DNA of 34,096 nucleotides, taken from IMG/VR virus record IMGVR_UViG_3300032104_000068. One strand, 5' to 3'. The notes under the pieces were generated by a model. The model was not told the DNA's origin. It saw nothing but the letters and a program-made list of their open reading frames with translations, and did not search any database. Source of the DNA: a virus. Made by a program: the position numbers and the translations under genes. This document shows, piece by piece, positions 5,617 through 34,096 of this stretch. Position 1 is the stretch's first letter; each line of letters starts with the position of its first letter.

Positions 5617-5862
5617 TTAAAGTTCCCTTGGTCCAAGATAAAATTGATGTTCCGAAATCCGCCACTTGTCATTCTTCAATTCCAGCGTCAGGCGTCTTCC
5701 TGTTTCGGTCGGGATGCCGAAAGCATTTTCCAGCAAACGCACAAAAAGCCGTGGTACGGGTTTCAAGGAAATCTGGCCAATCACCAGAACCTTGGTTGGT
5801 GCGCCATAAATGTCGGCTTCAAAACTGTACCCGTTGACATAAATACTTGCCAATTTTCCCAT
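5617..5862 (-). CDS. hypothetical protein (81 aa; the frame also stays open upstream to ATG 6135)
   Basis: The ATG at 5862 is preceded by GGAAAGGAAAGACG. It reads MGKLASIYVNGYSFEADIYG... Confidence 0.65.
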   Translation of the reverse strand: MGKLASIYVNGYSFEADIYGAPTKVLVIGQISLKPVPRLFVRLLENAFGIPTETGRRLTLELKNDKWRISEHQFYLGPREL

Positions 5863-6144
5863 CGTCTTTCCTTTCCGGTTTTCCCCATGTTCATCTATAT
5901 TACTATTTATATTTAAAAGATTGTTGTTGTTGGTCCTGTGGACAACTGGCACAACACCCGGTGTAGCGCAAGCCGTTGCAACGCTTTCTCTTGTGTATAA
6001 CCCTGTGGATTGTTTAGCGGTGAACGGGGATGCTTTATCGAAAGGAACCATCCCGTCAGTTAATCCACGACCGGCGCACAGGTTTTTCACAAACCGAAAA
6101 AAATTTAAATCCGTCATTTCAAAGATGCTGTTCATGGTCTTTCC
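5863..6144 (-). repeat. copy B of a ~270-bp module with degenerate DnaA-box-like motifs plus an AT-rich tract (paralog of 29909..30183)
   Basis: The 13-nt tcatggtctttcc is identical at 6132-6144 and 30171-30183. A 43-nt block (5905-5947) matches 29945-29987 at 37/43, and a 37-nt block matches at 27/37. Minus-strand boxes are TTGTCCACA (5937-5945) and CAATCCACA (6004-6012). Plus-strand boxes are TTAATCCAC (6060-6068) and TTTTTCACA (6083-6091). Confidence 0.8.
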
Positions 6145-6320
6145 GCCAATCTTGCGTTCAATATCATCCAGGCCAGCGCCGCTTCTTTTATTGGACCGGC
6201 ATCTTCCCCAATCAGGGTGTGAATTGACACCCCGTCTTTTTTGGCTTGGGCCAATTTTTGTTGTGCTTCTTTGGCGCAAACATGCACCAGCCCCTGCAAC
6301 CCCACAACCATGTCACACAC
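6132..6320 (-). CDS. hypothetical protein (59-62 aa)
   Basis: The start is either GTG 6320 or ATG 6311, just after the HTH gene stop. Its stop overlaps ATG 6135 (ATGA). Confidence 0.5.
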   Translation of the reverse strand: MCDMVVGLQGLVHVCAKEAQQKLAQAKKDGVSIHTLIGEDAGPIKEAALAWMILNARLAERP

Positions 6321-6501
6321 TCAGGATGTCATCGGCGGTGACTTTACCCCCGGTGGCGTCCACAAGCCGCCTGAGCGCGTTGCGGGACAGCGGGCCACCG
6401 TTCACGGCACGGCTGACTTGCTGGTCACTGAAATCGTGCTTCCGGGCAAATGCGGCCTGGTTCCCGTTAAAATTCTTTTCAATAAATTCTTTCATTTTCA
6501 T
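6313..6501 (-). CDS. Cro/YdaS-like HTH DNA-binding protein (62 aa)
   Basis: GNQAAFARKHDFSDQQVSRAVNGG...ATGGKVTADDIL matches the Cro/YdaS-type pattern. The RBS is AAAGGAAAA. Confidence 0.65.
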   Translation of the reverse strand: MKMKEFIEKNFNGNQAAFARKHDFSDQQVSRAVNGGPLSRNALRRLVDATGGKVTADDILSV

Positions 6502-6512
6502 GCGCTTTTCCT

Positions 6513-6704
6513 TTAATAGTCTTCCAGGTTTTTAAATTCATATGACCTTAGTTTTCGGGTTTTATTTTTTTCATTTTCAATTCCCCAATCCGGGTCAAAT
6601 CTTTTTCTGATATTCTTGGCGGCATTGCCGAAACTCTTAAGCTGTGCCAGACGCTTAAGTTGTCTAATGGTTGGCTGGCCCGCTTTGGTTTTACCTGTTG
6701 ACAT
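6513..6704 (-). CDS. basic small protein, first gene of the leftward arm (63 aa)
   Basis: The ATG is at 6704 (MSTGKTKAGQPTIRQLKRLAQLK...). I preferred it over the overlapping ORF 6548..6751 on composition and on coupling to the next gene. Confidence 0.5.
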   Translation of the reverse strand: MSTGKTKAGQPTIRQLKRLAQLKSFGNAAKNIRKRFDPDWGIENEKNKTRKLRSYEFKNLEDY

Positions 6705-6758: not shown

Positions 6759-7823
6759 ATGTTAAAAATGACTGAGCCACTTTTTGATATGGGTGTTGCG
6801 CCTGGAATTTATTTCAACCAATCCTTTGAGGATTATCTTGCGGTGCCCGCGCTATCAGCATCAGGCGTCAAAAAACTGATGGGCAACCCGCTTTTATTTT
6901 GGGCGGAAAGCTGGCTGAACATTGACCGCTCGGAACAAGAGGACCGTGAACATCAGCGCATCGGCAAGGCATATCACTGTTTGATTTTGGAAGGCCGTGA
7001 TGAATTTAACCGGCGCTTCCCGGTGAACTTCAACCCGGACGATTTCCCCGAGGCCCTGAACACCCAGGAAGATTATAAAGAGCGGTGCCGAGAATTGGAC
7101 CTTGCGGTCAGCGGCACCAAGCCGGTCCTGAAGCAACGCATCCTTGAGGCTGATGTTGAATGTCGGTTTGTTGAAGATGCCAAGGCTGAATTTTACCGGG
7201 CGAATGAAAATGCTGAAGGCTTTATGGAGCCGGATGAAATTGAAGAACTGGACTTCGCCGCCAGCCTGATTGAAATTCATGAGGATGTATCCAAATGCTT
7301 CCGGGGCGGGTTTTCAGAAGTCAGTGCCTTCTGGTATGACCCGGATGCCGGCATCCCGTTTAAGGTGCGCTTTGATTATCTCAAGCCCATGATGATTGCT
7401 GAACTGAAGACAATGGCCGCAACCGAGCGTCCTATGGAAAATGCTGTTTACACTGAAATGGCCAAACGCCGGTATCATATCCAAGGCACACTTTATTTGC
7501 GGGCCATCAATGAACTCAGGAAACTAGGGCCACTTTCAACGGACGGCACCAAAGAACAACAGGAATTTACTGATAAAATTTTTGGTGACGACCATGAAAT
7601 GAAGTTCATTTTTATCTTCCAGCAAAAGGGTCCGGCCCCGCTGGTATTGCCCCGGATTTTTCCACAGCAATCAATGTTCAACTGCGGGGAAACCAGCATT
7701 GATGCCGCCATGACCCGCTTTGATAATTATTGGCGGACTTTCAGAACCGCGCCCTGGGTCCAGCATGAGCCGATTGAATATTTTGATGATGCCATGTTCC
7801 CGCCCTGGGCAACCGAGATTTAA
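6759..7823 (+). CDS. RecE-like PD-(D/E)XK exonuclease (354 aa)
   Basis: SEVSAFWYDPDAGIPFKVRFDYLKPMMIAELKT ... YHIQGTLY fits the D...ExK plus Q..Y arrangement of exonuclease VIII-type nucleases. An annealing-protein gene lies downstream. Confidence 0.65.
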   Translation: MLKMTEPLFDMGVAPGIYFNQSFEDYLAVPALSASGVKKLMGNPLLFWAESWLNIDRSEQEDREHQRIGKAYHCLILEGRDEFNRRFPVNFNPDDFPEALNTQEDYKERCRELDLAVSGTKPVLKQRILEADVECRFVEDAKAEFYRANENAEGFMEPDEIEELDFAASLIEIHEDVSKCFRGGFSEVSAFWYDPDAGIPFKVRFDYLKPMMIAELKTMAATERPMENAVYTEMAKRRYHIQGTLYLRAINELRKLGPLSTDGTKEQQEFTDKIFGDDHEMKFIFIFQQKGPAPLVLPRIFPQQSMFNCGETSIDAAMTRFDNYWRTFRTAPWVQHEPIEYFDDAMFPPWATEI

Positions 7824-7830
7824 AAAGAAT

Positions 7831-7860
7831 TAGAAAGGAATAGAAAGGAATAGAAAGGAA
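7831..7860 (+). repeat. 3 x tagaaaggaa tandem repeat (triplicated Shine-Dalgarno)
   Basis: Three perfect copies sit at 7831-7840, 7841-7850 and 7851-7860. Only the last is correctly spaced from the ATG at 7866. Confidence 0.95.
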
Positions 7861-8540: not shown

Positions 8541-9380
8541 ATGAATAAGATGAACACCACACCTGAAAAAGTTGATGCCCCCGCACCGGCTGAAGCCCCC
8601 GGTACCAAGAAAGAAAACCTGAAGAAAGGAAAGCCCCAGGCCAGGTTGAAAGCCGGGGGGAAAGTTGAAGCTATTGTTCCACACACCATTGAACAGGTTT
8701 ACCGATTTGCGGATGCTGTTATAACCGCCTGCCTTGCCCCTGATAGTTTTGAGAATGACCGGAACAAAGTTGCAATGGCCATCCTGAAGGGCTTGGAAGT
8801 TGGGCTGATGCCGATGACTGCCCTGGCCAATATTTATATTGTCAAAGCACGGCCAACAATTTGGGGGGACGCGGCAATGGCCCTAGTTCATGATACCGGC
8901 GAGTTGGAATTTATGAATGACCACTATGAAGGGTCATTTGAAAAGGGGGATTTGATGTGTTCCGTCACCATGAAGCGGCGCACGGTTGACAACTCAATCA
9001 CCCGGACCTTTTCAATGGCGGACGCAACCCACGCCGGATTGATTAACCGGGACGGCACTCCCAAGGCTGGCAAGTTTGCCTGGAATTATATCAACCGGAT
9101 GCTATTCAACCGTGCCCGCGCCTGGTGCGTCCGTGACCTTTTTGCTGATGTGCTTTGCGGGCTGGCTATCAGGGAAGAACTGGAAGGCATCCCTGAAAAG
9201 AAAACCGTCAAGGACACAAAATTTCTTGGTGATGTTATCGAGGGTGAGGCTAATGAAATTCCCGCTGGCGATGCTGAGACCAAAACATCCGAAGGTGACA
9301 CCTGGGTATCACCTGAACCCGAAAAGGACCTGATTGAGGAAGTCCTTGAGGATGATGAATTGCCAGAAAAAAGAGGATGA
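8541..9380 (+). CDS. Redbeta/RecT-type single-strand annealing protein (279 aa)
   Basis: GLEVGLMPMTALANIYIV...IWGDAAMALV and NRMLFNRARAWCVRDLFADVLCGL resemble the conserved RecT/Redbeta blocks. It is paired with an exonuclease gene. The start may be ATG 8541 or 8550. Confidence 0.6.
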   Translation: MNKMNTTPEKVDAPAPAEAPGTKKENLKKGKPQARLKAGGKVEAIVPHTIEQVYRFADAVITACLAPDSFENDRNKVAMAILKGLEVGLMPMTALANIYIVKARPTIWGDAAMALVHDTGELEFMNDHYEGSFEKGDLMCSVTMKRRTVDNSITRTFSMADATHAGLINRDGTPKAGKFAWNYINRMLFNRARAWCVRDLFADVLCGLAIREELEGIPEKKTVKDTKFLGDVIEGEANEIPAGDAETKTSEGDTWVSPEPEKDLIEEVLEDDELPEKRG

Positions 9381-17128: not shown

Positions 17129-17863
17129 TCAGTCGCTCGCCGAAGTTGAACAGGTGGTTAAAGCGCCTGTAATAGTGAAGTTTCCGCCGGTCCCTTTATT
17201 ATTGCTTGGGTCGCCATCAGGAGCATATATTAGCGGGGTTGTCCCAGTTACAAGTTCGCCATTAGCACCTAAATCAACTGGTTTAAGAGTGGCAGTTATT
17301 AATTTGCGTCTGTTCGCTAAAACTGATACATCGAAAAAAACATTATCAAACCAAAGTTCTTGAAGGCAACCATTTAATTTTAAACCTCCAGTAACCCATG
17401 CACCGATACCCCAATCCGCTTTGGTATAATCAATTGTATCATCTATTTCAGTTGACCCCGCGGCTTCATCATCAACATCATCAATGAAAAAATGAGTGAC
17501 TGGCACAGCCAAATCCCACGTTCCACAAAGATGAATATGACTGGCCGATGCTAAATAAGTTGAAGCTGATACCATTCGCATAATAAGACTACCAATAGCG
17601 TTTTCACCTCTTATTTCAAGTGTATTTGCACTGGCTCTTAATACCTCAAATCCACGACTAGTATTCTCTATTAATACTTGATTAGCGCCATCTCCGCCAT
17701 CTAATCTTAGCCAAGCGGAGAAAGTCCCGGTTTTGGCATCAGCGTTGCCGGTTAAATCTGCTCCTCTTAAGGCAAAATCATTGGTGCCGTCATAATCATT
17801 GGCGGTAGTGGTGTAGCCAGGTGGAACGCCACCACTGAAAAGTGCAAATGGAAAAGTAAACAT
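17129..17863 (-). CDS. LamG / concanavalin-A-like lectin-fold protein (244 aa), probable receptor-binding accessory
   Basis: FDGTNDFALRGADLTGNADAKTGTFSAWLRLDGG...QVLIEN is the typical LamG-type pattern. The gene is markedly AT-rich, with 20/60 and 21/60 G+C in two hand-counted samples. Confidence 0.55.
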   Translation of the reverse strand: MFTFPFALFSGGVPPGYTTTANDYDGTNDFALRGADLTGNADAKTGTFSAWLRLDGGDGANQVLIENTSRGFEVLRASANTLEIRGENAIGSLIMRMVSASTYLASASHIHLCGTWDLAVPVTHFFIDDVDDEAAGSTEIDDTIDYTKADWGIGAWVTGGLKLNGCLQELWFDNVFFDVSVLANRRKLITATLKPVDLGANGELVTGTTPLIYAPDGDPSNNKGTGGNFTITGALTTCSTSASD

Positions 17864-27347: not shown

Positions 27348-28766
27348 TTAATAGGTCACGCCGGTCATGACGCTGATGCTTTCGCTGTGCAAAGTGGCAA
27401 AATCAACGTGCAGGACCATGCGGATGACAGTTTCATTCCGGCTGAACCCGGACAGCAATGTTCCGGTGCTGTCGAGATAAGCGGCACCATCCACCACGGC
27501 AAGCGTGATTTCATCAACATTCGCAATCAACTGGTCTTCCATATCGGCCAGCAAGATTTCGGTTTCATTGGACCCGCCCCCAAGATTTGAGGGGATGTTG
27601 TTGGTGCTCCACCAGGGATGTCCTTCAAGCAACGGGGTTGACCCGCGCATTTCGGGGAAGACCCGGTTGCCGCCAGCGGCCTCACGCAAGGCACCGATGT
27701 TGCCACGCGAACGGGGCACGCCAAACCAGGCGGGTTTGACCATCCCGATGTCTTTGCCTTCCAGATTGGTAATCATGATGTTGACATCACTTTCAACATT
27801 GGCGGCAGTTGCGCCAGCCGTGGCGAATACGTTGCCAGCAAGCGCATGGTTCCGCATCCCCTTGGGCTGTGACAGCGTGCCAGAGCCGCGCAGGAACGCC
27901 ACATCTTCTGTCGTGCCCATGATGCGAAGTGCGTCATTCTGAGCCAACTGCATGGCCTTGCCAGAGGTATAGCGCAACAGTTCATTGGTGACAGGGATGA
28001 TGACCGTCAGCTTGTGCGCCACCAGTTTGATTTGACCAGTTTTTTGCTGTGACGCATTGGTGTTAGTGCCTTCCTCACCCCAAGTCGCGGTCGCACCGGC
28101 GGTCAGCTTGTCCATGCCGAAATTGCCGCGCGGAATTGTAACCATGCGCGGACCGGCACGCCGGACAACACTGGCCGGACGCAACAGGTCAATGATTTCT
28201 TCCGCCATATCTTCACGGACTGTTGACCCGCCGGCATCAAAGACAGTGGACAACAAAGATTTTTCCAGGCTGTCCTTCAGCTTTTCATCGCTGATATTTT
28301 CAATGAAATAAGATGCGCCATAGGGATTGAATTTGTGCATGACATGAACCGCCAGCAATTTGCCAAAGCGTGTTTTTGCCTGGTCTTCCTCACTTTCCTT
28401 CCCGATGTCATTGAACTTTTCAACCTCGGCCTTGGAAACACCGCCCTTGAGAACGGCAATGTTTTTGTCGGTGAAGCCTTTTTCTTTTACGGCATCATCA
28501 ACCGTGTCCTTGACGGTTTTCTTCAGGTCCGTCATGAACTTTTCGGCGTCAAAATCATCGGCCGGAGTTGTTTTGACCATTGGTTTTTTCTTGCCATCGG
28601 CTTCATCGGTCTTAGGTTTGGCCGCTGAGATTGCCTCAAGTTCGGTGATGTCCGCCTTAAGACCCTTCAGTTTTTCGGTTTGTTCATCCGTTGCCGCATC
28701 ACCAAGCTTGTCAACGTCCGCCTGTAATTTGGCAAGTACGGCTTTAAGCCTTTCCAGAATTTTCAT
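27348..28766 (-). CDS. major capsid protein, HK97 fold, with N-terminal delta-like coiled-coil region (472 aa)
   Basis: It follows the prohead protease. The N-terminus is coiled-coil for about 150 aa, followed by typical HK97-family blocks (…LRPASVVRRAG…TIP…, …AFLRGSG…QPKG…). Confidence 0.9.
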   Translation of the reverse strand: MKILERLKAVLAKLQADVDKLGDAATDEQTEKLKGLKADITELEAISAAKPKTDEADGKKKPMVKTTPADDFDAEKFMTDLKKTVKDTVDDAVKEKGFTDKNIAVLKGGVSKAEVEKFNDIGKESEEDQAKTRFGKLLAVHVMHKFNPYGASYFIENISDEKLKDSLEKSLLSTVFDAGGSTVREDMAEEIIDLLRPASVVRRAGPRMVTIPRGNFGMDKLTAGATATWGEEGTNTNASQQKTGQIKLVAHKLTVIIPVTNELLRYTSGKAMQLAQNDALRIMGTTEDVAFLRGSGTLSQPKGMRNHALAGNVFATAGATAANVESDVNIMITNLEGKDIGMVKPAWFGVPRSRGNIGALREAAGGNRVFPEMRGSTPLLEGHPWWSTNNIPSNLGGGSNETEILLADMEDQLIANVDEITLAVVDGAAYLDSTGTLLSGFSRNETVIRMVLHVDFATLHSESISVMTGVTY

Positions 28767-28798: not shown

Positions 28799-29908
28799 TT
28801 ATGCTTTCTTCATGGCGTCTTTCACAGCGTTTAAAACAACGGTTGTGATTTCCGCCTGAGTTGGCATCTGTACGCTCTTGGATTTTGCGGCACCGTGCGG
28901 CACCTTGAGATTTGCCATAGCACGGGCGACCAAATCTTGCAACTCCTCTTGCCCCTCATTGCTTTCCCTGACTTCCAGCATCACGGCGTCGAGTTGTTTT
29001 TTAAACCCCCGGACTTCAGCCATCAGGTCAGCAAGTGTCGGGGCTTTTTTCGGCTTTGTTTTTTTCTCAGGCATAGGGAAAAAAGGCAACGGTCCGCCTT
29101 CGTCAGCAATGATGCCGCGCTGTGACTTGACTACTTCCAGCACCTTGGTTTTCAATTTTTCAAGCCATTCATCCTCAAAGCTGTCCAGGTCTTTTTTCAC
29201 ATGGTCCATGACTTCACCGGCCAGTTTTTTGGTGCCAAAGGTGTAGGTGACTTCGCCTTCCAGGGTGTTTTTCCGTACCAGTTCAACCTGATGCCGGGAA
29301 ATGGGCAGGTCATTTTTCACGGTCTTCCATTCATCCAGCGTGCGCCGCGCCCATTCATTCATCGGCTTCAGGTCAATGCCCTTGGCCCGCGCCTGGATTA
29401 AGGCTTCCGGGTTCGACGGTACGTTGACCAGGGAAAATTCCAGCAGTTCCTGCTCAATGAAATCAATCCCGCCCCGGTCATTATTGTGCTCATGGCGCCT
29501 GGAAACAAATCCAACCGATGTGGTGTTCAGAAAACCGCCAGCCAGCAATTTAAACGTCATGAAGCCAAATTCATGTTCATCCTTTTCAGTGAATTTCGTG
29601 GCCAGGCTGACCAGTTTGCCGCCCTGGACCTTGACCTGCCGGGCCTGGGCGATTGCCGGGATGCGATGGTCATGCGCCCATAACACCACCGGGTTCTTTT
29701 TGAAGTGGGTCAACTCCCAACCCTTGACACTGATGGTATCGCCATCCCGGTCAACATCGCCAGTGGAAATAATGAAGTCAACGGTCCGCTTGTCCTGGTC
29801 AATGCCCCGAATATAACCGGGTTCAGCATATTGCTTGATAAGCATTGCCCCCTTGGGCGTCATGATGGTGTCGCTTTTCAGGTCGCTTGAATAAAGAAAT
29901 TTTGTCAT
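28799..29908 (-). CDS. prohead serine protease (HK97 / S78 type) with C-terminal scaffold-like region (369 aa)
   Basis: DFIISTGDVDRDGDTISVKGW...NPVVLWAHD...TSVGF...LLEFSLVNVPSNPEAL carries the S78 motifs. The C-terminal half is helical and charged. Confidence 0.85.
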   Translation of the reverse strand: MTKFLYSSDLKSDTIMTPKGAMLIKQYAEPGYIRGIDQDKRTVDFIISTGDVDRDGDTISVKGWELTHFKKNPVVLWAHDHRIPAIAQARQVKVQGGKLVSLATKFTEKDEHEFGFMTFKLLAGGFLNTTSVGFVSRRHEHNNDRGGIDFIEQELLEFSLVNVPSNPEALIQARAKGIDLKPMNEWARRTLDEWKTVKNDLPISRHQVELVRKNTLEGEVTYTFGTKKLAGEVMDHVKKDLDSFEDEWLEKLKTKVLEVVKSQRGIIADEGGPLPFFPMPEKKTKPKKAPTLADLMAEVRGFKKQLDAVMLEVRESNEGQEELQDLVARAMANLKVPHGAAKSKSVQMPTQAEITTVVLNAVKDAMKKA

Positions 29909-30183
29909 GGCCTTTCCTTTGTTATTACTCTCATCATCTTCATAATTTATATTTAAAGGGTTGATGATGTTGGTGCTGTGGATAACTAATGTCGCAGTAC
30001 GGCCAGCTACAACATTTTGCGTCCAAACTTTAAACGCACCACTATATTTAGGTGTTTCAAACCAAACACGCCAGGTTGATAACTCTGTGAATTGTTTGTG
30101 ATTAACCGGGATAATTTTTTAAAAATCAATTTATCCACAGCCAATACACAGGTTTTCCACAGGGTTATGCTCATGGTCTTTCC
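29909..30183 (-). repeat. copy A of the ~270-bp module: DnaA-box cluster plus AT-rich tract (paralog of 5863..6144)
   Basis: TTATCCACA is at 30131-30139 (+) and 29977-29985 (-). TTTTCCACA is at 30153-30161 (+). CACAG cores sit at 30136, 30147 and 30158, an 11-bp phasing. An AT-rich tract spans about 29925-29960. Only a 55-codon ORF (30007..30174) is present. Confidence 0.8.
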
Positions 30184-30200
30184 TTATCTTGATTTGCAAA

Positions 30201-30218
30201 ATGTTTCACGTGAAACAT
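30201..30218. other. 18-bp perfect palindrome atgtttcacgtgaaacat
   Basis: Read directly from the sequence. It lies 39 nt downstream of the portal-MuF stop. On the minus strand it is followed by TTTG. Confidence 0.9.
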
Positions 30219-30256
30219 CCCGCCTTTCTTTAATGTTTTCAATGTCTTATCCTTTA

Positions 30257-32278
30257 TCAGCCCTGCACAATCGCCAGCACATCAGCGTGCATGGCCCGGA
30301 AGGACCGCCTGAAGGCGCGGCGCAACTGGCGTTCAAACTGTTGCCGCCTGTTTTCAAACACCCGCCACACTTCAGCACGCTTTTCTTCTGTATCCAGACG
30401 GGCAAGATTGGCCGGGACCACAGGGACCACGCCGCACTGGCAGTTAATGTCCTCCCCGGGCACCCCGAATTGTCCCGGCCCTGGGGCGCTGGCCCCCCCG
30501 GCACTGACAAAATTGTTTTCAACCGGAATGGTCACGCCGGATAATGCAACATGCGTGTCCCGCACCGGCGACCCGCCGACCGTAATCAGCCACATTTTCT
30601 TTTTCACCCCGGCCTTGACCATCCCTTCCTGCACCCCAAAGCTGGACGCTCTGACGGTTTCGGTCCGGGCGATGGTGCCCGCCCGTGAAATGCTGGCGTC
30701 AAAGACCTGTGTGACCCGTGTTGAAAGCGCCGGAAGACTGTCCCCCGCCGCCAGTCCTTCAGCCAGGGTGCGCCGCAAACCTTCCTTGATGGTGCCGTTG
30801 ACGCCGACCACACGGGTGCTGGAATAGTCCCGCAAGAACCGCACCACAGCCGGGTCATTCAAATCAAAAACAATATCCAGGTTCAAGGACCGGAACAGGT
30901 CATCCCCGAACGCGGCCACGGTATCGGATACAATCCCGACCGTTGCCGGGCCTGGGCTGTTAGCGTCAATCGCGGCAAGAATATCATCAATGTCATCGGG
31001 TGCCTTGGTGATTTCCTTGAACGTGCCATCTATCAGCACCGGGCCATTTTTGCTTTCCCTGAAAAATAACTGTGGCGCACGCAATCCAGCAAGTTCTTCC
31101 AGCCCAGGGGTTGCCGGATTGCCTGTGATGTTCAGATTGAACGGCACCGGGAACACGTTCAGCCCCTCAAGCACTTCCTCACCGGCGGCCTTGCGGACCT
31201 CATTCAGCCTGAAGGCTTCTGGCCGTGATTTCATCAACTCAATTTTGGTCTTCATGTCTTCCTTGACCGGGCTGATGAACCCCAATTTGGCGCGTGGGTC
31301 CTGCTCGTGCAATTCACGTTCAAAGACCGCACGCATTACAATCAGTTTGGGCAGGACCACATGCTTGGATAAAAAGAACTCGGCGGCTTCGATCGTGGCC
31401 CGGTTGCTGTTCTCAAGGATGCCCAGGGCTTCGGGCGGGAAGCCATAGACCTGAAGCACCGCGTCCCGTGACATCCCCCTGATGTCCTTCATCGCCATCT
31501 TGCGGAAGTCCTTGGCAAATTCCTTCACGTCAATCTTGCCGCCAGTGACAAAGAACGGCACCGATGCCCGCGCCACGCCATGCAGTTTTTGAAGCCATTT
31601 TTTCTCAAGCCGTTCAGCCTGGTCCTTGCCAAACCCGCTTTCACTGTCCGCCGCTGAAATCAGCAAATCAGGCCGGGCGCTGTTGCGGAAAAAGTTCTTG
31701 ATATAGCGTGTGGCATAGCTATCAGTTTCAAGGTCATCCGCCAGCGCCGCGCCGCGTCCCTTGCCTGGGCCGTAGGGATTGGCCGGGTCTGGATTGACAA
31801 CCGCAATGATGTCTTCAGGCTCAAAGCTGAACATGGTGGCCCCGATACGGACCTGCCAGGTGCCCTTGCCAAGTATCGGCCGCTTCAGGATTTCGTGGGT
31901 CGGAATAGGCCAGAAGGAAATTGTGTCGCCCCGGAAATTGCGTTCCTTCAGGAAATGAAATTCATCCAAAATACAAAAATATTTCCACGCCAGCAACCAG
32001 TTTTGAAGGCCAGGAAAAACTTCATTGCCGTTATTCATGGCATTGGCAAAGGGATGGTCCTCAATTTCCTCACCATCGACTGTCACTAACCAGGGAACCG
32101 CCGCACCGATTTCAGCGGTCTTGTTGACCACGGCGTTGAGCCATTTGTATCGGTGATAACCCAGGACAAGTTGACGTTGGGTGAAAATTGTCGGGGTGGT
32201 GTTATCGCCGACTGGCGAAAAAAAGAAGTTGCCTTGCGCTTCACTCCCAAAAAGTCCGCCGAATATTTTTTTCAACAT
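30257..32278 (-). CDS. portal protein fused to a MuF / SPP1-gp7-like minor head protein domain (673 aa)
   Basis: ATG 32278 overlaps the terL TGA, and the ORF-track TTG at 32293 is an alternative start. The first ~400 aa are portal-like. The C-terminal ARTETVRASSFG...W..T.....VRDTH..L.G......F......PG....INCQC is the Phage_Mu_F signature. Confidence 0.85.
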   Translation of the reverse strand: MLKKIFGGLFGSEAQGNFFFSPVGDNTTPTIFTQRQLVLGYHRYKWLNAVVNKTAEIGAAVPWLVTVDGEEIEDHPFANAMNNGNEVFPGLQNWLLAWKYFCILDEFHFLKERNFRGDTISFWPIPTHEILKRPILGKGTWQVRIGATMFSFEPEDIIAVVNPDPANPYGPGKGRGAALADDLETDSYATRYIKNFFRNSARPDLLISAADSESGFGKDQAERLEKKWLQKLHGVARASVPFFVTGGKIDVKEFAKDFRKMAMKDIRGMSRDAVLQVYGFPPEALGILENSNRATIEAAEFFLSKHVVLPKLIVMRAVFERELHEQDPRAKLGFISPVKEDMKTKIELMKSRPEAFRLNEVRKAAGEEVLEGLNVFPVPFNLNITGNPATPGLEELAGLRAPQLFFRESKNGPVLIDGTFKEITKAPDDIDDILAAIDANSPGPATVGIVSDTVAAFGDDLFRSLNLDIVFDLNDPAVVRFLRDYSSTRVVGVNGTIKEGLRRTLAEGLAAGDSLPALSTRVTQVFDASISRAGTIARTETVRASSFGVQEGMVKAGVKKKMWLITVGGSPVRDTHVALSGVTIPVENNFVSAGGASAPGPGQFGVPGEDINCQCGVVPVVPANLARLDTEEKRAEVWRVFENRRQQFERQLRRAFRRSFRAMHADVLAIVQG

Positions 32279-33549
32279 CAGATTAAATCCCAATCGCCTT
32301 GTTTGCCACTAAGGACCAATTCAGTGATTGCCCACACCAGCGCATCCATTCTGTCCGGGCTTTTTTTCGTGACCCCAGGGACATATGAAATAAGCTGGTC
32401 TTCAAGCCCTGACAAGGTGCCGATATGGTGGACCCTGCCCAATTCATACAAGGCGGCGACTGGTTCAGCGCGGGTCATTTTCCCTTTTGTGGCATGAACG
32501 GATTTATAACTAACATTATTTTGAATGTTCCGCAAATTGGTTTCCACCAGGTCGCCCCCCTGGTTGACCTCAGCCACCACCCGGTCAGCCAGAAAAATAT
32601 TGTAGGCCCTAAGCACCTTATTGCCCCATGTCAAGGGTGAACCCTGCAAGGAACAATCCTGCAAAATGAACGCATGGCGTCCGGTGCCCTGGCCATGTGC
32701 CCCGGCCACAATGATGCCGCACTCGTCAGCATCCGGGCCGGACGTGACCGGCGGGTCAACCGCCACAACAATCCGGTCCATTTCCTTGGGCGGGTTCAGC
32801 ATCCGGGCCTTGTCAATATCCTCCCAGGTCCACAATGCACCTTCAACAATCCGCTGGAACTCACCGGCAAAGAACCGGGCGCGGGCGGCACGCGGCAGGC
32901 TTTTTAGAATTTCAATAAATTCGGGGGTCAGGTTTGCCAGATTATCAGGCGGGTTAATCTGCATTTTCCCATATAGATGCGGGTTCCTTAAGGGTTCTTT
33001 TGTCCCTGGTAAAAGGCCCTCAAAGAAAATTGAATAAATCCAGTGTTTAATTGACGGCGGATTGCAGTCAAACAGCATTTTCAAATCCAAGCCAACATTT
33101 TCCGCCAGCCTGGTCATAACAATTTCAGCCGCCATCCAGGTGATTTCGGAAACCTCGTTCAGAAAAATCGTGCTGTATTCATTGCCCAATATTTTTTCAA
33201 CCCGCTCTTTATCGTCCAGGCCCATGAACCAAATTTGCGACCCGTTGGACAGTTCGGCAAACCAGTCCGTCTTATTGACGTGATAGGGCACGCCAGGAAA
33301 GCACAGCGTCATCACTTTGGGAAAGGTATCATAAACGATTGATTGCTTGATATGGTTGAAATGATGCCGTGCCACCAGGTGCCGGGACTTGACGGCGGCG
33401 GCGCGGATTACAATGTCCCGCAAATGAAGGAAAGTTTTACCGGACCGTGACCCGCCGTAAAGCAGGATGAACATATACCTGGCAATCAAGCGGGTGGCAT
33501 CAGTCTGCTTTATAGTTTTTTGAAATCGTGGCGGCATCATCGGCATCAA
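32278..33549 (-). CDS. terL: terminase large subunit (423 aa)
   Basis: It has Walker A YGGSRSGKT, an ATPase block IFLNEVSE, and a C-terminal nuclease-like region VAVDPP...ECGIIVAG...AEVNQGGD. It lies between terS and the portal gene. Confidence 0.9.
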   Translation of the reverse strand: MMPMMPPRFQKTIKQTDATRLIARYMFILLYGGSRSGKTFLHLRDIVIRAAAVKSRHLVARHHFNHIKQSIVYDTFPKVMTLCFPGVPYHVNKTDWFAELSNGSQIWFMGLDDKERVEKILGNEYSTIFLNEVSEITWMAAEIVMTRLAENVGLDLKMLFDCNPPSIKHWIYSIFFEGLLPGTKEPLRNPHLYGKMQINPPDNLANLTPEFIEILKSLPRAARARFFAGEFQRIVEGALWTWEDIDKARMLNPPKEMDRIVVAVDPPVTSGPDADECGIIVAGAHGQGTGRHAFILQDCSLQGSPLTWGNKVLRAYNIFLADRVVAEVNQGGDLVETNLRNIQNNVSYKSVHATKGKMTRAEPVAALYELGRVHHIGTLSGLEDQLISYVPGVTKKSPDRMDALVWAITELVLSGKQGDWDLI

Positions 33550-34096
33550 TCACCATTTTGATTTCCAGTTGACCATCCAAATCAATTTTGTCGCCAAAAA
33601 TTTTGGGCAGGATTTTGGATGTCAACCATTTCCGGGCATCAATTCGCAACCTGGACCGCTGGACACGCTCTTGGTCAAACCGGATTATTGTTTTGCCGCT
33701 GGCGGTTTTAAAAATAGCATAATCCTGCCGCCCGTCATCGGCAATTTCATTAATTTCATCAGCCATCGCATGTGCCCCCAACTCGCGCGCGTGTGCGTAT
33801 CGGACGTAAAAGCCCTTTGGCCGGTCATCAATATACCATCCCCTGATTGTTGTTGCAGGTGGAAGTTTCGTGTCATCCCGGCAAATAGTTTTAAGCCCGT
33901 GACCATCAGCAAGGCGGGCCAGTATCTTCCGTGCAATCGCCGGGGTGTACTTGGTCGGGCGTCCTTTGGATTTGGGCTTGGGGCGTCCTTTGGATTTGGG
34001 CTTGGGGCGTCCTTTGGATTTGGGCTTGGGGCGTCCTTTGAATTTGGGCTTGGGGCGTCCTTTGAATTTGGGCTTGGGGCGTCCTTTGAATTTGGG
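33500..34096 (-). CDS. terS: terminase small subunit, 3' portion (5' end at 91..1 after the wrap)
   Basis: ...KSKGRPTKYTPAIARKILARLADGHGLKTICRDDTKLPPATTIRGW...YAHARELGAHAMADEI...RLRIDARKWLTSKILPKIFGDK is a classical small-terminase pattern. The frame is open to the window end. Confidence 0.85.
   Translation of the reverse strand, partial: PKFKGRPKPKFKGRPKPKFKGRPKPKSKGRPKPKSKGRPKPKSKGRPTKYTPAIARKILARLADGHGLKTICRDDTKLPPATTIRGWYIDDRPKGFYVRYAHARELGAHAMADEINEIADDGRQDYAIFKTASGKTIIRFDQERVQRSRLRIDARKWLTSKILPKIFGDKIDLDGQLEIKMVIDADDAATISKNYKAD
33957..34096. repeat. 24-bp tandem repeat, 6 copies (3 'ggattt' type then 3 'gaattt' type)
   Basis: The gggcgtcc core recurs at 33957, 33981, 34005, 34029, 34053 and 34077. 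On the minus strand it encodes KPKSKGRP and KPKFKGRP. Confidence 0.95.

Follow-up and report, generated by a model that had tools for sequence, protein, structure and literature searches.

Why does a tailed phage with an otherwise tightly packed late operon carry a 348-bp gap between its portal and protease genes, and what do the DnaA boxes in that gap do? The phage is IMG/VR virus record IMGVR_UViG_3300032104_000068, a 34,096-bp complete metagenome contig (ENA ERZ25043467, NODE_134) that is referred to throughout as the window; the same phage was also found in two further contigs. Its siphovirus-like late operon lies on the minus strand in the order TerS, TerL, portal-MuF, protease/scaffold, capsid and tail genes. 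The gap extends from 29909 to 30256, between the end of portal-MuF at 30257 and the protease ATG at 29906-29908, and has a GC content of 0.37-0.41, compared with 0.55-0.63 in the flanking genes. An initial annotation, made from the letters of the window, had described the gap, the packing of the remaining operon and a cluster of DnaA boxes beside an AT-rich tract, and had proposed a DnaA-dependent origin. The length of the gap and the packing were borne out, as the junctions from terL to capsid are short (a 16-bp overlap of TerL and portal, 32 bp from protease to capsid and 43 bp from capsid to the next gene).

The analysis was computational and used one genome and a 783-bp strain variant. The gap was found to hold one of two copies of a non-coding element, in which two opposed arrays of DnaA boxes are followed by a further box at a fixed distance from an AT-rich tract. 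Tentatively, the element is proposed to be a duplicated module that assembles host DnaA and would most likely serve as an origin.

Anatomy of the DnaA-box cluster

All boxes named in the initial annotation were recovered. The perfect 9-mer TTATCCACA occurs twice in the gap, once on each strand, and has no third perfect copy in the window, for which 0.25 copies are expected (0.004 for the gap); the probability of two or more in the gap is ~8e-6. A further box, TTTTCCACA, carries one mismatch, and another, CAATTCACA, carries three and is weak alone. Three CACAG cores on the plus strand (30136, 30147 and 30158) follow each other in exact 11-bp steps, and the AT-rich tract begins 19 nt from the minus-strand perfect box. 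When the consensus TTWTNCACA was used, three of the eight matches in the window fell in the gap (P for at least three ~1.6e-5). On a weighted cluster score over 300 bp the gap reached 13, whereas 200 local, composition-preserving shuffles of the genome, taken as the null, averaged 5.2 and never exceeded 9. Sites with at most one mismatch are not enriched window-wide (10 against 7.1 expected), and the signal is one of local clustering. Chance cannot explain the cluster.

The boxes are ordered into a compact element (Table 1). Array L and array R are opposed and separated by an AT-only spacer; the spacers within array R are 0, 2 and 3 bp, and its end pair, two boxes 3 bp apart, reads CAATTCACA-GAG-TTATCAACC. 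Beyond a spacer of variable length lies box D, the second perfect box, followed by a linker and the AT tract. Among all 30-bp duplex windows of the 34 kb, 29922-29951 ranks 6th for low stability. The element closes with the start region of the downstream gene, made up of a ribosome-binding site and the ATG. TGTTT-N6-AAACA sites, of which the window contains just two (0.13 expected), lie 149 bp apart, flank both box arrays and both fall in DNA specific to this copy; they could be operators of a dimeric regulator, or small hairpins. The palindrome at 30201-30218 is predicted to form a hairpin with z = -5.0.

Table 1. Coordinates of the late and early copies of the element and of genes in the window
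Feature	Position	Strand	Sequence or remark
Late copy, whole segment	29906-30202	minus	homologous to early 5860-6164 (collinear blastn matches, alignments)
Array L	30131-30161	plus	three same-orientation 9-mers, exact 2-bp spacers (11-bp period)
Array L, box 1	30131-30139	plus	TTATCCACA, perfect
Array L, box 2	30142-30150	plus	CAATACACA, weak
Array L, box 3	30153-30161	plus	TTTTCCACA
AT-only spacer between opposed arrays	30115-30130		16 nt late, 27 nt early
Array R	30074-30114	minus	orientation opposite to array L; weak boxes (2-3 mismatches)
Array R, box 1	30106-30114	minus	TTATCCCGG
Array R, box 2	30097-30105	minus	TTAATCACA
Array R, box 3	30086-30094	minus	CAATTCACA, followed by the 3-bp spacer
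Array R, box 4	30074-30082	minus	TTATCAACC
Variable spacer, array R to box D			88 nt late, 46 nt early
Box D	29977-29985	minus	TTATCCACA, perfect; proximal to the AT tract and directed at it; early counterpart TTGTCCACA
Linker, 19 nt	29958-29976	minus	GC cluster GCACC, period-3 run AACATCATCAAC, CC
AT-rich tract, candidate unwinding element	29922-29957		begins with TTTAAATATAAAT, identical in all copies
Palindrome, 18 bp, perfect	30201-30218		ATGTTTCACGTGAAACAT; first TGTTT-N6-AAACA site; directly after portal stop, outside the duplicated segment
Second TGTTT-N6-AAACA site	30053-30068		within a 24-nt insertion specific to the late copy
Ribosome-binding-site and ATG lookalike	30171-30185	minus	AAGGAAAGACCATGA; relic of the 3' end (…AERP-stop) of early gene 6132-6320
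ORF55 (55 aa)	30007-30174	minus	called by gene finders; good Shine-Dalgarno 6 nt before ATG
Early copy	5863-6164	minus	fills the interval from the ORF 6132-6320 stop to the start codon (ATG, 5860-5862) of an 81-aa gene
Early array L, first box	6083-6091	plus	TTTTTCACA
Early array L, middle box		plus	CGGCGCACA
Early array L, last box	6061-6069	plus	TAATCCACG
Early array R, pair, first box	6004-6012	minus	CAATCCACA
Early array R, pair, second box	5992-6000	minus	TTATACACA
Early box D	5937-5945	minus	TTGTCCACA
Early AT tract	5892-5921		least stable 30-bp duplex window of the genome
TerL	32278-33549	minus	
Portal-MuF fusion	30257-32293	minus	
S78-like prohead protease/scaffold	28799-29908	minus	
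HK97-fold capsid protein	27348-28766	minus	
RecE-like exonuclease	6759-7823		
RecT-like annealase	8541-9380		

A lineage-specific, non-coding insertion and its early-region paralogue

No closer relatives of the phage were present in the collections searched: the protease had one match at 100% identity and the next at 49%, and scans of viral and genome contigs gave relatives at 39-49%. In the nearest (49%, L013), 12 bp separate the portal stop from the protease start. The gap is an insertion specific to this lineage: of 11 relatives, 10 have a protease start that lies at most 12 bp from the upstream open reading frame (ORF) or overlaps it.

Whether relatives conserve the region as an intact protein-coding gene, a possibility raised in the initial annotation, was checked, and the outcome favoured a non-coding element. 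The nearest relative lacks the region altogether. ORF55, the gene called in the gap, was rejected as a gene: it has no homologue but itself among 5.8e9 proteins, its codon score is -0.08 with two frames tied (real genes score +0.15 to +0.45 with a clear frame), its start region is a copied gene end, and the homologous DNA of the early copy lies in a different frame, with stops. It is almost certainly not a gene. A 172-aa ORF running through the early copy was also rejected. Its sole match among 1.8 billion representatives is an 81-aa protein at residues 92-172; in the sister-strain contig described below, codon 10 of this frame is a stop, and no gene is called there over 269 bp; and synonymous to non-synonymous changes between the strains number 6:16 in the 172-aa frame, against 9:6 in the 81-aa gene. 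The gap and its early counterpart are, by these sequence measures, non-coding.

A cis-acting RNA had also been suggested for the gap. On the minus strand, 30080-30168 folds into an 88-nt hairpin (-29.7 kcal/mol, z = -4.4) that beats the opposite strand through G-U pairs, and this suggestion found no support when the early copy was folded, as no significant structure was obtained there (z = -0.3 and -1.2). RNAalifold on three sequences gave a positive covariation term (+3.3), with 1 of 24 pairs kept by two-sided changes. No Rfam family reached its gathering score in the gap (best E 0.11, a miRNA hairpin model), and no tRNA was found in it. The hairpin is best seen as a by-product of two opposed arrays that share a motif.

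The box cluster itself is real, non-random and non-coding, as the initial annotation implied. It has a counterpart, however, in an early-region element with weaker boxes, of which it is a diverged duplicate. A window-wide scan for box clusters found this second one at 5880-6090, where the score of 9 is as high as the null reached. Three collinear blastn high-scoring segment pairs join the two regions (29912-29987 with 5866-5947, 73%, E 4e-9; 30079-30161 with 5997-6091, 67%, E 3e-5; 30168-30202 with 6129-6164, 76%), so that ~300 bp of the gap are a diverged paralogue at 64-73% identity. The copies are direct, one in an early and one in the late operon, and nhmmer found none beyond these two. 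Every box position, the 2- and 3-bp spacings and the 19-nt distance from box to AT tract are kept without indels, including the whole of array L (6061-6091 in the early copy), and the indels between the copies (11, 24 and ~18 nt) are confined to spacers. The late pair at the end of array R corresponds to CAATCCACA-GGG-TTATACACA at 5992-6012, and the early linker reads GGACC or GCACC, then AACAACAACAAT and CT, with a length of 19 nt in all three of the copies available.

The late copy also contains a gene end. The stop of ORF 6132-6320 is the TGA within GGAAAGACCATGA, GGAAAGACCATG is present at both 30183 and 6144, and the late copy carries ~20-30 nt from the 3' end of this upstream early gene. 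An early gene end inside the late copy points to early-to-late copying, or to a common source of which this gene end was part. The boxes of the late copy surpass those of the early one, and the late copy has acquired the bracketing TGTTT-N6-AAACA pair, which suggests that it is under selection of its own and perhaps under its own regulation.

Constraint was assessed on the sole informative variant, a 783-bp contig of a sister strain (L016) that covers the early copy and is 93% identical in the flanking genes. Blocks of ~40 nt over array L, over the box pair and over the triplet-plus-AT segment are invariant between L016 and the window. The 81 box, triplet and AT positions contain 2 of the 30 strain differences, where 9 are expected (P ~0.03, from a permutation that kept clusters of differences together). 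The conservation pattern indicates modular constraint on boxes, spacing and AT tract.

Searches for further homologues were made with the gap and the early copy. Neither had a homologue by blastn against phages, plasmids and E. coli genomes, and the invariant block of the element was absent from viral and metagenome contigs in a pattern scan. Single viral matches to two other conserved blocks were rejected, one (L014) as chance and the other (L015) as sharing just a tandem pair, a lone box and the GCACCAACAACAA context.

A proposed origin function and competing explanations

In the oriC of E. coli, two opposed arrays of closely spaced low-affinity boxes are nucleated by strong boxes; R1 is the box proximal to the DNA unwinding element (DUE), the spacing between R1 and the DUE is critical, and the DUE strand captured by DnaA is the T-rich one (PMC5716108). 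The phage element resembles oriC in having strong boxes beside close-set weak ones (2-3 bp spacers) in two opposed arrays, a strong box at a fixed distance from an AT-rich, easily melted tract, and a T-rich strand 5' of TGTGGATAA. The arrays are recognizable at the sequence level, with many member boxes weak (2-3 mismatches), and the AT tracts behind the 19-nt linker rank 1st (early) and 6th (late) in duplex instability. Chromosomal origins have been recognized by at least three TTWTNCACA boxes, each with at most one mismatch, at a mean spacing below 100 bp (PMC7561715); the late copy has three exact boxes within 185 bp, and the early copy has two exact boxes and the one-mismatch TTGTCCACA. 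The element differs from oriC in that it occurs in two diverged copies of ~230 bp, each wedged between operon genes, with no apparent GATC cluster, no 13-mer repeats found, no canonical DnaA-trios and no dnaA or dnaN neighbour. The resemblance to oriC goes beyond that noted at the outset, through the opposed arrays, the fixed spacing from box to AT tract and the side of the T-rich strand; canonical DnaA-trios are absent.

The basal unwinding system (BUS) of bacterial origins consists of one or more boxes, a GC cluster, at least three DnaA-trios (3'-GAT-5', middle A invariant) and an AT-rich region (PMC8287927, PMC7561715, PMC8235120). The phage element follows this order and polarity: box D comes first, then GCACC as the GC cluster (compare CACC in C. 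difficile), then 4-5 units with a period of 3 and finally an AT tract. Trios were sought as at least three consecutive NAN triplets no more than 16 bp from the box, on the complement of the strand that reads 5'-TTATCCACA-3', with the orientation rule taken from PMC8235120, PMC7561715 and the oriC sequence of E. coli. On that strand the late copy reads 3'-TTG TAG TAG TTG-5' and the early copy 3'-TTG TTG TTG TTA-5'; the pattern (.A.){3,} failed in every frame, with at most two consecutive middle-A triplets. The box-strand triplets are CAA and CAT where the canonical triplet is CTA, so that the trio strand lacks the conserved middle adenine and has triplets with a middle T or G. Because the trio pattern failed, the element is not classed as a BUS.

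Genes of the window were searched for a phage-encoded initiator with Pfam and PHROGs on ~40 ORFs, many of which are orphans; no integrase, replication initiator, helicase, primase or polymerase was found among them. The initial annotation had stated that the genome shows no initiator of its own, and the scans are consistent with this as absence of evidence only. DnaA-assisted iteron origins are known from P1 (oriR), pSC101, F and RK2, which the phage element resembles as a mobile element with host DnaA boxes beside an AT-rich region. No Rep or other initiator gene was found in the same scans, and no 17-22-bp iterons were found in or near either copy, where a repeat search gave just box-based 11-bp and 22-bp repeats; for these two reasons the element is not regarded as a P1-type or plasmid-type iteron origin.

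Clustering beyond chance, two exact 9-mers with R1/R4-like flanks and the modular constraint argue that DnaA, or a protein of the same specificity, probably binds the element functionally. Among functions, replication initiation is favoured, and tentatively so, because it best accounts for the anatomy as a whole and for the phage's apparent want of replication genes. Host DnaA would first occupy the strong boxes, spread cooperatively across the weak boxes of the arrays and help the adjacent AT tract open, whereupon the host helicase and replisome would be loaded onto a phage genome in which no initiator, helicase or primase is recognizable. Recombination-dependent replication would follow at a later stage, with the support of the RecE/RecT-like pair. 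The early copy would be the ancestral origin and the late copy a retained duplicate, now with better boxes. A more specific version, in which an initiator-less tailed phage mimics the host origin with two ~230-bp oriC-like modules, CAA/CAT triplets replacing DnaA-trios, firing through DnaA-DnaB(-DnaC) and a takeover by the RecE/RecT-like pair, is a doubtful proposition.

Several observations weigh against an origin, beginning with the missing trios. None of the early-copy boxes is perfect and in each strain a change weakens one of them, so that constraint on that copy is weak. True homologues elsewhere, on which conservation could be judged, were not found by blastn and pattern scans. Two origins in a 34-kb genome, one of them within a head-gene operon, would be unusual. 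The space that each copy fills runs exactly from a stop codon to the next ribosome-binding site, a placement that also suits a leader or regulatory cassette. The boxes were scored on an E. coli-type consensus, which may not be that of the host. Any of the many orphan ORFs could conceal an initiator, and GC skew carries no origin information in the window, where it tracks transcription direction alone.

Control of late transcription by DnaA had been listed among the alternatives to an origin. As a DnaA-responsive expression cassette, the element would act upstream of the 81-aa early gene and of the protease-scaffold and capsid genes: DnaA at box D, ~42 bp upstream of a start deduced from TATAAAT, would together with the arrays activate or repress transcription, or, in a variant, an AT-rich leader and a strong ribosome-binding site would uncouple protease and capsid translation from portal. 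Such a cassette is unlikely, and it remains a serious rival because both copies span from the upstream stop to the downstream ribosome-binding site and ATG and because relatives couple or overlap portal and protease translation. The ribosome-binding regions of the two copies are homologous, and the insert provides the protease with an independent start region. The longest invariant block, TTTAAATATAAAT, contains the -10-like TATAAAT; a palindrome or hairpin follows the portal stop; and the late-specific TGTTT-N6-AAACA sites bracket the arrays in an operator-like manner. Set against this, a scan for E. coli-type signals, which may not be those of the host, found no gene-strand sigma-70-like promoter in either copy (at most 3 of 6 matches at -35) and called no intrinsic terminator in the gap. 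The sole sigma-70-like match of the gap, at 29919-29946 (+) inside the AT tract, is antisense to the operon (TTGTTA-16-CATAAT, 9/12), and no equivalent was called in the early copy. The TATAAAT context is not common to other intergenic regions, and a cassette leaves two opposed multi-box arrays 90-150 bp upstream unexplained. If the element does control the capsid genes via DnaA, late output would be tied to the replication state of the host, and that too would be new.

The chromosomal elements datA and DARS are short clusters of 3-5 DnaA boxes, mixed in orientation, that are not origins and act on DnaA rather than start forks. The phage element could be a sink or modulator of this kind, or like the proposed iss of T5, with the amplifying genome titrating or re-charging host DnaA and no role as an origin; host initiation would be shut down or deregulated, or phage DNA would be tethered to membrane-bound DnaA. 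Each genome carries two clusters that combine high-affinity and weak boxes, and many viral contigs have tandem boxes, in settings that vary and include the neighbourhood of terminase genes. The box geometry and IHF dependence of datA and DARS could not be matched; a fixed-distance AT tract, present here, is not needed there, as titration requires neither such a tract nor a GC cluster, and an IHF core match (ATCAANNNNTTR) occurs in the late copy only. The iss of T5-like phages consists of two modules of DnaA-box pairs 3 bp apart in an untranslated region far from the origins, with a function that is merely hypothesized (bioRxiv 10.1101/866236). It is similar to the present element as a non-coding phage region with consensus and variant boxes (TTATCAAC-, TTATCCC-), with a module that occurs twice, kilobases apart, with a 3-bp box pair in both copies and with boxes embedded in inverted repeats. 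It differs in that the T5 modules are mutually inverted and lie in the first-step-transfer terminal repeat; the phage copies are direct, sit in early and late operons and adjoin an AT tract. No T5-like biology is evident in the genome, and nothing in the window hinted at a T5-like genome or at terminal repeats. A DnaA sink is distinctly unlikely.

Another reading is a passenger with no present function and with decaying boxes: the late copy would have arisen from the early intergenic region by illegitimate or homology-assisted duplication, or both copies would derive from a captured origin fragment. The late copy holds a useless 3'-end fragment of the upstream early gene, the copies are just 64-73% identical, and the early copy diverges faster between strains than its flanking genes (88.8% against 93-94% identity), with a box-weakening change in each strain. 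Decay would not have produced the late copy, which has the best boxes, two of them perfect; nor would it keep spacings while spacers absorb indels, or steer substitutions away from boxes and AT tract. Compact phage genomes rarely retain 300 bp of junk through ~30% divergence, and a relic is improbable.

The 9-mers could instead be iterons or operators of a phage protein other than DnaA, for which HTH (helix-turn-helix) or orphan early proteins and the AT-hook-like TerS are candidates. CTGTGGA cores at an 11-bp period look iteron-like, several small HTH proteins are encoded beside the early copy, and TerS, with at least 8 KPKFKGRP repeats, is a possible binder of the AT tract. Two exact DnaA-consensus 9-mers with R1/R4-like flanks (G-TTATCCACA-G) would then be a coincidence of ~1e-4 or less, and the extended motif is common to more than 100 unrelated viral contigs and a chromosomal origin-type region; this explanation is highly improbable. 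A small protein-coding moron (ORF55) or a structured RNA is scarcely credible after the coding and folding results given above, although ORF55 has its Shine-Dalgarno sequence and gene calls, the hairpin folds better on the mRNA-sense strand, and the insert resembles a moron in being low in GC, lineage-specific and placed between conserved head genes; it differs in having no credible cargo gene and no detected promoter/terminator pair, and in deriving from the phage's own early region.

That phages and plasmids can carry DnaA boxes was already known. What is new is an oriC-like module of two arrays and an unwinding element that has no detected initiator, is duplicated in a small genome and is inserted in a head-gene operon. 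Many small tailed phages have no recognizable initiator, and how their DNA synthesis starts is mostly unknown. The ~230-bp module of boxes and AT tract is a compact and clearly bounded candidate for such a start, with two natural variants of differing box strength.

Tandem DnaA boxes in other contigs and remaining features of the genome

The arrangement TTATCCACA-N3-TTATCCACA was found in at least 120 viral contigs (L017-L136), against 3 for a composition-matched shuffled 9-mer, an enrichment of tandem consensus boxes of at least 40-fold over the control. The sites are intergenic in 86 of 120 among the matches listed, and many of the loci have 4-8 perfect boxes within 600 bp. Genes flanking them are diverse, those most commonly annotated being replication-initiation proteins (~15/150) and terminases. 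The extended context AG-TTATCCACA-G (AGTTATCCACAG) is common to the phage element and the viral tandem-box contigs. The enrichment suggests that use of host DnaA by phages is far commoner than P1 oriR, lambda pR and T5 iss imply. If the present phage does mimic the host origin, this principle may also lie behind hundreds of uncharacterized viral tandem DnaA-box clusters.

One recurrent subfamily of the tandem-box loci adds AGTGGAG-type iterons. A contig that, by its size and the sequence of the ORF named next, is putatively microvirus-like (L015, IMGVR_UViG_3300033463_004318, 5.7 kb) has three perfect boxes at 1209-1335, arranged as TTATCCACA-AAG-TTATCCACA, ~75 nt and TTATCCACA-GCACCAACAACAA, upstream of a 343-aa ORF (1400-2431) read from its sequence as a putative rolling-circle Rep; its context of box, GCACC and AAC repeat is that of box D. 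Several more contigs of 4-7 kb have tandem boxes, and in such small contigs the boxes might serve DnaA-dependent priming of complementary-strand synthesis.

A looser pattern built from the box pair of the element gave 32 metagenome loci, which were rejected as homologues: their tandem DnaA boxes are of a generic kind, and they include a region of chromosomal origin type and one upstream of a phage terS. In one locus (L164, Ga0079225_10001981, 6200-6520), a 650-bp intergenic region between ORFs of 506 and 376 aa appears to have a typical dnaA-oriC-dnaN-like layout. It contains many DnaA boxes, and its three-box array CCCTGTGGAAAACTCTGTGGATACTTGTGGATTG resembles CCCTGTGGAAAACCTGTGTATTGGCTGTGGATAA of the late copy as an analogue, not a homologue. 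A phage-like TARA scaffold (L156, 300-700) has a DnaA-box pair ~350 bp upstream of a putative terminase small subunit ORF, an instance of the terminase association noted above.

Elsewhere in the window, the capsid protein shares just 35-37% identity with capsid proteins from phages of Proteobacteria. The early region consists of divergent operons that part at ~6.5-6.8 kb and includes small HTH regulators, DUF1643 and an M15 endolysin in addition to the RecE-like and RecT-like genes. Tandem repeats of 24 bp at the contig ends (1-71 and 33782-34096, minus) were considered as iterons of a real origin and ruled out, as they are coding. They encode at least 8 repeats of KPK(F/S)KGRP, in which GRP is an AT-hook-like motif. 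These repeats lie at the N-terminal end of the terminase small subunit, whose gene starts at an ATG near 71, wraps the contig ends and continues into 33500-33781. The 52-bp terminal overlap of the contig falls within this 24-bp repeat, so that circular closure and repeat number are uncertain. Between the RecE-like gene and the following ORF, 7831-7860 consists of three perfect tandem copies of TAGAAAGGAA, which have a Shine-Dalgarno-like look. In the tail-fibre region, a 244-aa ORF (17129-17863, minus) without a PHROG match has a GC content at third codon positions of 0.29 (43% GC overall), against ~0.6 in its neighbours, and is probably a recent acquisition, either a host-range or an accessory gene.

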